Positions 35,364 to 37,041 of a stretch of 64,000 nt of DNA are shown here, piece by piece. Numbering within the stretch: position 1 is the stretch's first letter; each line of letters begins with the position of its first letter. The DNA comes from Escherichia phage BEU5: the sequence record OM632664.1, one strand, 5' to 3'. Position numbers and translations under genes: made by a program. Below the pieces are notes generated by a model. The model did no database searches. It was not told where the DNA came from and worked only from the letters and a program-made list of their open reading frames with translations.

Positions 35364-35867
35364 CTATTCAAACAGTTTACGGTCAGAACGAATCTGGTTC
35401 CCCAGTTCAATCAGTTGGTTATCACGGAGTCTAACAGTTGCCCTGAGTTCTTCAACCAAACGTCTGCCTTCTTCAAGACTTGAGTCGAGTCTGGCTGCAT
35501 GGCTTGCAAGATTGAGGCATTGAGTGGTTCCGGTTGAGGCTTGACGTTTATAACTCTCGGCTCGTTTTTCTGACTGGAGCAACCGACTATTGTACTGGTT
35601 AGTAATAGAATCAATAACGACTTCATAAGACTCTTTGGCTTTATCAAGTCGAAGGGTAAGTTGCCCGACTTCATAACTGTGTTCCCGATTCTTTTGGTCA
35701 TAAGCCAGTTTTACTCTATCAAGTTCTTTTGAGTACTCCTTCTTATCTTCATCCCATAGTGCTTGAACTTTCTTTTCACCATGTTGTGAACCAAGAAGAA
35801 AAAGGGTAGCTCCCAGAGCTACCCCTCCCAAAAGACATACAGTTAACTTAATTAACGATGTCTTCAT
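35364..35867 (-). CDS. Rz-like i-spanin
   Basis: Start at ATG 35867 (GGAGAGG RBS): N-terminal [27 protein letters not shown] then coiled-coil-like body; directly downstream of endolysin. Confidence 0.6.
35411..35626 (-). CDS. Rz1-like o-spanin lipoprotein embedded in Rz (+1 frame)
   Basis: [18 protein letters not shown] lipoprotein signal with lipobox, Pro-rich mature part; wholly inside the Rz ORF. Confidence 0.55.
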   Translation of the reverse strand: MKSLLILLLTSTIVGCSSQKNEPRVINVKPQPEPLNASILQAMQPDSTQVLKKADVWLKNSGQLLDSVITN

Positions 35868-36474
35868 TACACCTCTCCAGAGGGACATTACCAATACGGT
35901 TAGCAATCCATCCTGTAGTGTACTCAGGCATATTAAGAGATAAATAGTAGTTTAACTGTTTACCATCCAGAGACTTCAAAATGAGCTTACAGGCTTCTAC
36001 TTTGCCTCGTTTATTCTGAAGGCTCTTATATGCACTTAGAGTTCCAGAACCGACTTTACCATCAACTTGTATTTTAGGGTAGTCTTTGCCATTTCTGGAG
36101 AAAGCATTAAGAGATTCTTGTAACCAACGAGATGGTCTTGCAGGTCCAGTATTAACACCAGCATCTACTAGTTTTTCTGTTACCGCCGGTGATACATCTG
36201 CAAACTTAACAAAGCCAGGCTTCAAGATGTAATCGTTGTAATAAATACTTGATGCCATTTCCTGAGTTAAGTTCTTCATTGAACCATCCCAGTTATACAT
36301 CGACTCTAGTTCTTGCTTATGCTTTTGAGCAACCTGAATAGTTACACCATGATTAGTTTCACCTCCTGGGTCTTTGGGGTCATTAACGTATCCACCCTCA
36401 ACAGCAAATACAGCAGCAATGATTGCTGCAATAACTCCTCCAACACCACCAACTTTCTTCTTACTTATTGCCAC
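35848..36474 (-). CDS. endolysin, GH108-type N-acetylmuramidase with N-terminal signal-anchor (SAR-like)
   Basis: EGGYVNDPKDPGGETNHGVT GH108 motif preceded by hydrophobic GGVGGVIAAIIAAVFAV. Confidence 0.7.
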   Translation of the reverse strand: MAISKKKVGGVGGVIAAIIAAVFAVEGGYVNDPKDPGGETNHGVTIQVAQKHKQELESMYNWDGSMKNLTQEMASSIYYNDYILKPGFVKFADVSPAVTEKLVDAGVNTGPARPSRWLQESLNAFSRNGKDYPKIQVDGKVGSGTLSAYKSLQNKRGKVEACKLILKSLDGKQLNYYLSLNMPEYTTGWIANRIGNVPLERCNEDIVN

Positions 36475-36724
36475 ACCAATCCTCCTTTGGTTTCAAACGA
36501 ACCAGTCGGCAAATAATATTCAGCACAAAGAGTGCTATAGCAATGTTATTGCCATGTGGAATATCTTTGAGGATATGTTGGGGTAATGCAGAGAAAGAAC
36601 TGGATAAGGCATCCACACAAGAGAAGAACAATATTGCTAATGTGCTAATCTGAATAGATGCCCATTTCCAACAACGTTTCCAATTAGGAACCATTTCCAC
36701 ATGTTTGGTTAACTTGCGAACCAT
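36461..36724 (-). CDS. holin-like small membrane protein (2 TM)
   Basis: Internal ATG 36724 with GGGAG RBS; two hydrophobic helices; adjacent to endolysin. Confidence 0.45.
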   Translation of the reverse strand: MVRKLTKHVEMVPNWKRCWKWASIQISTLAILFFSCVDALSSSFSALPQHILKDIPHGNNIAIALFVLNIICRLVRLKPKEDWCGNK

Positions 36725-37041
36725 GCAAAAATCTCCCGTCTGGCAGCAGCCAGTATACCAATAATGATACCTGCTCCAGCCCATACCCATTTACCAAACA
36801 ATCCAGCACCAACAACTTTATGTTTGATGGTAATGAACTCTTCAATAGTAGGGGCAGACTCAGCCAGAGACTTTTCTACATTCTCCAGTCGAGTGTCCAT
36901 CTTATTAATAGACAGTTGAAGGTTACGTACAGCATCATCTAAATCTTGCCGAGATTTAGCATCACGGGCATTATTTTCGAAGAGTGTCTTCATACGTTCC
37001 TCCATTCGAGCTAGGAGCACCTCTACGGATTCATGACTCAT
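36709..37041 (-). CDS. membrane-anchored protein (C-terminal TM), lysis-cassette member
   Basis: 110 aa; coiled-coil N-terminal part plus C-terminal TM. Confidence 0.45.
   Translation of the reverse strand: MSHESVEVLLARMEERMKTLFENNARDAKSRQDLDDAVRNLQLSINKMDTRLENVEKSLAESAPTIEEFITIKHKVVGAGLFGKWVWAGAGIIIGILAAARREIFAWFAS

Follow-up and report, generated by a model that had tools for sequence, protein, structure and literature searches.

Which mode of host lysis is encoded between positions 35364 and 37041 of Escherichia phage BEU5 (sequence record OM632664.1), and which of two holin-like proteins found there acts as the holin? All five open reading frames (ORFs) of this segment are located on the minus strand of the 64,000-nucleotide stretch of DNA that was analysed as a whole (the window). 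We assign them to the multi-gene lysis cassette of coliphage N4, composed of a pinholin, a signal-arrest-release (SAR) endolysin and a two-component spanin system, and estimate the probability of this assignment at about 0.93. Awuah et al. (bioRxiv 10.1101/2025.11.12.688109) have analysed the N4 lysis system experimentally and demonstrated SAR behaviour of gp61, pinholin function of gp63 and spanin complementation by gp60/gp60a on proteins identical to those encoded here; the cloned gp60-63 cassette alone lysed E. coli in ~25 min. Since the N4 proteins were tested directly in that study, the biology of the cassette is already known, and our main finding adds no new biology to it. The sequence itself supports family membership, topology features, the lipobox, the embedded frame, conservation and a dual-coding constraint, and no sequence feature contradicts the explanation by pinholin, SAR endolysin and spanins. 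A first, sequence-only reading of this DNA had correctly reconstructed the complete cassette, embedded spanin gene included. The genes are:

36709..37041, minus strand: gp63, pinholin, 110 amino acids; ATG at 37041 behind AAGGA with a 6-nucleotide spacer
36461..36724, minus strand: gp62, membrane protein (DUF7940), 87 amino acids; ATG at 36724 behind GGGAG with an 8-nucleotide spacer
35848..36474, minus strand: gp61, SAR endolysin, 208 amino acids; GTG at 36474 behind AGGAGG with a 6-nucleotide spacer
35364..35867, minus strand: gp60, i-spanin (spanin of the inner membrane, Rz equivalent), 167 amino acids; ATG at 35867 behind GGAGAGG with a 4-nucleotide spacer
35411..35626, minus strand: gp60a, o-spanin (spanin of the outer membrane, Rz1 equivalent), in the +1 frame within gp60; ATG at 35626 (alternatives at 35674 and 35701)

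Identity of the stretch was established by megablast of positions 35300-37200 against phage records. The segment matches Escherichia phages BEU13, BEU42 and BEU44 at 100% identity and N4 (EF056009, NC_008720) at 99.6% nucleotide identity over its full length. Judged by this match, OM632664.1 is an N4-type coliphage. The N4 counterpart carries gp59 (portal), gp60, gp61 (N-acetylmuramidase), gp62, gp63 and gp64 with order and strand unchanged, and coordinates as well as gene overlaps of its cassette (gp60, gp60a, gp61, gp62, gp63) match those of the window, showing the same system. Translation of the window at the N4 coordinates gave exactly the N4 proteins for gp60, gp60a, gp61 and gp63. Only one of the 8 nucleotide differences in 1.9 kb alters a protein, namely the substitution V39A in the first transmembrane segment of gp62 (codon 39, window position 36609). 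The wild-type residues G12 of gp61 and T65 and T71 of gp63 are present. For the N4 cassette, Awuah et al. cite Stojkovic and Rothman-Denes (2007). For comparison, ten other Schitoviridae from Escherichia, Klebsiella, Achromobacter, Erwinia, Stenotrophomonas, Pseudomonas, Xanthomonas and Alcaligenes hosts were used; the gene order gp63-gp62-gp61-gp60-portal is kept in phages of six host genera.

For gp61, the sequence-only reading had proposed a GH108 endolysin with an N-terminal signal-anchor, exported independently of the holin and hence pointing to pinholin-type timing. The parts of the protein that bear on this proposal are:

36400-36453, minus strand: SAR segment of gp61, residues 8-25 (from hydropathy and composition)
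36388-36399, minus strand: putative catalytic motif E26-G-G-Y29 of gp61 (from alignment)

Both domains of the enzyme scored above the curated Pfam cut-offs, with Glyco_hydro_108 (PF05838) at E = 8e-23 (81.2 bits versus 21.2) and PG_binding_3 (PF09374) at E = 5e-9 (36.7 bits versus 24.6). E26, G27, G28 and Y29 are invariant across 10 homologues. The solved GH108 muramidase Sen1395 (6v3z) and the PG_binding_3 protein 6v40 match gp61 with E = 2e-26 and 1e-22 (residues 16-194), sharing the catalytic fold family and the EGGY motif; these matches begin at gp61 residues 16-21 and thus leave out residues 1-15 with the Lys-flanked beginning of the SAR segment. A group related to gp61 is named 'holin-associated N-acetylmuramidase' in NCBIfam, for which gp61 scores below the cut-off. 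The N-terminus reads MAISKKK (K5-K6-K7), followed by the uncharged core VGGVGGVIAAIIAAVFAV and then directly by E26. As the sole N-terminal hydrophobic stretch, this core constitutes the weakly hydrophobic, Gly/Ala-rich segment after basic residues that marks SAR endolysins. A basic-flanked SAR-like segment is likewise found in nine of the ten annotated homologues and in the unannotated N-terminal extension of the QDWS595 ORF.

Instead of a releasable SAR domain, the segment could be a signal peptide that is cleaved off or a permanent signal-anchor, and the small-residue pattern V22-F23-A24 before E26 provides a formally possible signal peptidase site. With only 18 uncharged residues and 50% Gly/Ala, however, the segment is typical for SAR domains. 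Experiments with N4 gp61 also speak against a fixed or cleaved N-terminus: although associated with the membrane, the protein alone brings about gradual lysis, which becomes synchronous with a pinholin, and G12E, which places one charge in the SAR domain, arose as a spontaneous rapid-lysis allele (Awuah et al.). We consider this alternative extremely improbable. In the same study gp61 complemented endolysin defects with the large-hole lambda holin (S105) as well as with the phage 21 pinholin. Because it works with both types of holin and leaks alone, gp61 is classified as a SAR endolysin. Our sequence tests agree with all four proposals of the sequence-only reading, namely a signal-anchor endolysin exported on its own, pinholin-type timing, holin-like partners and Rz with a fully embedded +1-frame Rz1, and the experiments on the identical N4 proteins support this interpretation.

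One homologue deserves a remark with respect to its annotation. In the Alcaligenes phage QDWS595 (our locus L013, ~1630-2211) the annotated 142-amino-acid 'endonuclease' is a GH108 endolysin reduced to its C-terminal part, and the ORF extends upstream via EGGW and a SAR-like segment (KKTSISAGLGAIVLSVFAL). As the frame continues through these elements, the true start must lie further upstream than annotated, and the product name is wrong.

The second question, which protein is the holin, concerns gp63 and gp62. Two holin-like proteins had been noticed in the sequence-only reading, and both were recovered, gp62 with two transmembrane segments and gp63 with one; the latter is the pinholin by experiment on the identical N4 protein, a distinction that the sequence-only reading had not been able to make. 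For gp63 the following segments are relevant:

36742-36816, minus strand: transmembrane segment of gp63, approximately residues 76-100, Gly/Ala-rich (from hydropathy)
36817-36852, minus strand: 'Receiver' segment P64-K75 of gp63 (from conservation)

A coiled-coil-like N-terminal region of gp63 is followed by one hydrophobic segment at the C-terminus. PTIEEFITIKHK and GKWVW are the regions best conserved in 8 homologues, and the conservation of P64-K75 agrees with the 'Receiver domain' described by Awuah et al. The protein matches PHROG 5211 with E = 3e-50; no Pfam family was found even at E <= 10, and no significant NCBIfam family. This result and the single C-terminal hydrophobic segment place gp63 apart from the S21 family. 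Its function was defined by Awuah et al. in N4: gp63 complements the S21 pinholin, not lambda S105, and is lethal with a drop in colony-forming units of >99%. Rapid-lysis mutations fall in residues 65-71 near the membrane segment (T65I, T71A). We conclude that gp63 is a pinholin by function that stands outside the S21 sequence family. Kinship with XhlA-like proteins, which the combination of coiled coil and C-terminal transmembrane segment might suggest, was considered and dropped; the comparison returned only a weak PHROG 'hemolysin' match (E = 9e-4). As a side observation, a strong GGAGGA precedes Met17, an internal codon of gp63, by 4 nucleotides (36985-37000, codons 13-17). Met17 is mentioned as an alternative start by Awuah et al.; position 17 is Leu in seven aligned homologues, so that they share no ATG start at this site.

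Databases present the two proteins the other way round. In RefSeq, PHROG and many GenBank records gp62 is the holin, which would leave gp63, mostly named hypothetical or 'tape measure', as an accessory or structural protein. This view draws on the two hydrophobic segments of gp62, a classic class II holin topology, and on its match to PHROG 1356 'holin' (E = 4e-29), next to Pfam DUF7940 (E = 4e-13, 50.3 bits versus a cut-off of 27). It is also favoured by Erwinia phage S6, which kept a gp62 homologue and has an endolysin without SAR segment and no gp63 homologue, and by the slow release of SAR and soluble endolysins by gp62 alone (Awuah et al.). The genetic results on N4 reported there nevertheless oppose it. 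Without gp62, lysis by the cassette was unchanged, the phage viable and the plaques normal, whereas a gp63 deletion was obtained solely alongside compensating mutations in the SAR domain of gp61. Further, gp63 by itself is lethal and able to replace S21, and all rapid-lysis alleles of the cassette map to gp63 or gp61, with 0 in gp62. For N4, gp62 as primary holin is thus largely refuted and in our judgement very unlikely. Awuah et al. characterise gp62 as a lysis regulator that is not essential and has slow holin-like lethality, and gp63 remains the pinholin of the cassette.

The arrangement in S6 differs in several respects. Its endolysin (our locus L011, 509-1542) carries no SAR segment (MNKTQIIDQVIGK-EGGY), the position of gp63 is occupied by an unrelated protein with N-terminal membrane segment and C-terminal coiled coil, and an additional gene of 176 amino acids lies between endolysin and spanin. 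From this gene content, the gp62-type protein may be the real holin in S6, and the arrangement is consistent with an ability of gp62-type proteins to act as true holins.

Awuah et al. describe gp62 as 109 amino acids long, with two possible starts. We favour the 87-amino-acid form on sequence grounds because the upstream ATG at 36790 has no Shine-Dalgarno sequence ahead of it and the extension is neither conserved in sequence nor present in four relatives (Paxi, Holyagarpour, RiverRider and S6). The additional 22 codons are open in five of nine relatives; including the long start they amount to an out-of-frame reading of the gp63 GKWVW codons (TAA ATG GGT ATG). A conserved 109-amino-acid isoform acting as a lambda-like dual-start antiholin was considered as well and found no support in this comparison, although N4 itself may still make it.

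The two spanin genes are read from the same DNA; the ORF at 35411-35701 lies in the +1 frame of gp60 and wholly within 35364-35867. The sequence-only reading had placed an Rz1 lipoprotein ORF entirely inside Rz in this frame. The corresponding features are:

35790-35855, minus strand: N-terminal transmembrane segment of gp60, approximately residues 5-26 (from hydropathy), followed by a periplasmic helical domain
35579-35590, minus strand: lipobox IVGC of gp60a (from motif), with Ser-Ser after the Cys (Ser at +2)

With one hydrophobic segment in residues 1-30 and a match to PHROG 6197 'Rz-like spanin' (E = 7e-68), gp60 has the features of an i-spanin. Its embedded partner shows those of an o-spanin: location inside the i-spanin gene, +1 frame, lipobox and, for sorting to the outer membrane, a residue other than Asp at +2. 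The mature lipoprotein comprises 56 amino acids, the length also given for N4 gp60a by Awuah et al., and contains no Cys besides the lipidated one. An embedded +1-frame ORF with lipobox was found in the Rz homologue of all 11 Schitoviridae, the mature part covering 54-63 amino acids and sharing motifs such as INVKP, LQAMQP(D/N)ST and NSGQLLDSV. Across the relatives, identity to N4 amounts to 39-79% for mature Rz1 and 33-55% for Rz. The same frame and position in 11/11 phages at Rz identities down to 33% puts the embedded ORF far beyond chance. In a codon alignment, third positions of Rz are conserved at 0.76 where they overlap mature Rz1; the periplasmic part outside the overlap reaches 0.50 (Mann-Whitney p = 6e-10) and the part past the Rz1 stop 0.53 (p = 3e-4). 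Raised third-position conservation is the signature expected of two genes read from one DNA. Together with the IVGC lipobox and its occurrence in every relative, this dual-coding signature confirms the embedded Rz1. N4 gp60/gp60a fully complement a lambda lysogen defective in its spanins Rz/Rz1 (Awuah et al.).

Neighbouring genes of the cassette overlap by 16, 14 and 20 nucleotides, which fits translational coupling. The longest ORFs of gp60, gp62 and gp60a begin upstream of the probable true starts, at TTG 35906, ATG 36790 and ATG 35701, respectively, in line with the earlier remark that internal starts were needed and start sites are uncertain. TTG 35906 is neither annotated nor conserved, and the counterpart of gp60 in N4 and in AlfredRasser is annotated at 35364-35867. 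Most likely, translation starts at ATG 35867 (gp60), GTG 36474 (gp61), ATG 36724 (gp62), ATG 37041 (gp63) and ATG 35626 or 35674 (gp60a). From ATG 35626 a classical lipoprotein signal peptide of 15 residues results, from ATG 35674 one of 31 residues; the mature protein is identical. In AlfredRasser (species Enquatrovirus N4) the o-spanin is annotated within the i-spanin at 35411-35674. A start yielding an o-spanin signal peptide of ~14-20 residues is present in eight of ten relatives.

From these assignments a sequence of events can be proposed. gp61 would be exported by the Sec system and kept in the inner membrane by its weakly hydrophobic SAR helix, with the catalytic Glu26 at the membrane surface and the enzyme presumably inactivated by this tethering. 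Meanwhile gp63 would build up in the inner membrane and at the trigger time form holes, probably small ones, that collapse the membrane potential. Depolarisation would then set gp61 loose from its SAR-helix tether around the entire cell, allowing the GH108 N-acetylmuramidase to degrade the peptidoglycan. Loss of the wall would in turn free the periplasm-spanning gp60/gp60a complex to disrupt the outer membrane, probably by fusion of the two membranes. gp62 is dispensable by experiment, has slow holin-like lethality and may help cells to exit lysis inhibition. Some points reduce our confidence in the assignment as a whole. The functional data stem from a preprint and were obtained at plasmid expression levels, which may differ from those in infection. 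The topology of gp63 is predicted, and SAR segments and lipoboxes were called by hydropathy, composition and motif rules. The regulatory role of gp62 is tentative; its deletion shortened the lysis delay, but this effect was not complemented (Awuah et al.).

Besides the proteins, two terminator-like hairpins bracketing gp63-gp62-gp61 were observed, which is possibly a new observation; no mention of N4 late terminators was found in the single N4 transcription review consulted.

37056..37078, minus strand: terminator-like hairpin in the gp64/gp63 spacer, AGCCGGGGATACCCGGCT followed by TTTTC; stem 37078-37061, then T-run
35793..35827, minus strand: terminator-like hairpin in gp60 codons 14-25, GAGGGGTAGCTCTGGGAGCTACCCTTT followed by TTCTTCTT; stem 35827-35801, then T-rich tail

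Across the entire 64-kb window, the minus strand has only 7 such terminator-like sites. The hairpin in the gp64/gp63 spacer has a folding energy of -18.8 kcal/mol (z = -3.2) and ends 19 nucleotides before the gp63 ATG; a hairpin with T-run upstream of the gp63 homologue is also present in JWAlpha, Rexella, Paxi and RiverRider. As it leaves no room for a promoter before gp63, the lysis genes would be expressed by read-through. The hairpin in gp60 (dG -18.2) begins 21 nucleotides past the gp61 stop, in the codons of the membrane segment. For this hairpin, the native 5' 135 nucleotides of gp60 were compared with recodings in which the amino-acid sequence was fixed and the codons resampled. A local hairpin far more stable than in the recoded versions was found in N4 (z = -3.0), St11Ph5 (-4.3), KP8 (-2.4), JWAlpha (-2.9), Paxi (-2.8) and RiverRider (-3.3), and was absent in ZC08, S6 and QDWS595. 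None of 43 control segments taken from late genes of N4 is as extreme as the 5' segment of gp60. Among N4-like loci from IMG/VR, 30 non-redundant ones gave a mean z of -1.43 compared with -0.33 for controls (p = 0.0008), and 11 of them have a hairpin with a T-rich tail behind it. Many N4-like phages show the excess, including ones with different encoded residues. The synonymous-recoding null model largely rules out the reading of the hairpin as a by-product of coding for a membrane segment rich in Gly, Ala, Leu and Phe. In many N4-like phages the hairpin appears to be maintained by selection at synonymous sites, and the pattern suggests a selected RNA element directly after the endolysin gene. 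We regard it as possible, though rather doubtful, that the two hairpins act as intrinsic terminators or attenuators which insulate the lysis genes transcriptionally and would hold pinholin, endolysin and spanins at low doses in comparison to the flanking structural genes. If true, this insulation could be one lever behind the very late lysis of N4, and the hairpins might be of use for studies of its lysis delay.

The practical value of the assignment lies in annotation. Many public records of N4-like phages list the pinholin gp63 as 'hypothetical' or 'tape measure', many list gp62 as 'holin', and most omit the o-spanin. Homologues of gp63 are named 'tail length tape-measure protein' or 'tape measure protein' in KP8, Rexella and Holyagarpour, the Rz region is labelled 'RIIA lysis inhibitor' in one public record, and the embedded o-spanin is unannotated in most records.

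Among known systems, S21, R21 and Rz-Rz1 of phage 21 follow the same logic as the N4 cassette: a tethered endolysin exported by Sec, its release upon depolarisation by small holes, and then a two-component spanin. Functional exchange was reported by Awuah et al., with gp63 complementing the S21 defect and gp61 that of R21. There is, however, no sequence relationship between the two cassettes. While S21 possesses two transmembrane segments, gp63 combines a long cytoplasmic coiled coil with one C-terminal segment. R21 is an enzyme of the T4-lysozyme type and differs in this respect from gp61 with its GH108 and PG_binding_3 domains. N4, unlike phage 21, additionally has gp62 and lysis inhibition. 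With Rz/Rz1 of phage lambda, gp60/gp60a have the embedded +1-frame layout in common, and in both phages an i-spanin with N-terminal transmembrane segment and helical periplasmic domain is paired with an o-spanin that is a small outer-membrane lipoprotein. The N4 spanins nevertheless belong to PHROG 6197 and not to the lambda spanin family. In lambda Rz1 a Cys forming an intermolecular disulfide is important, whereas the mature N4 o-spanin has only its lipidated Cys.

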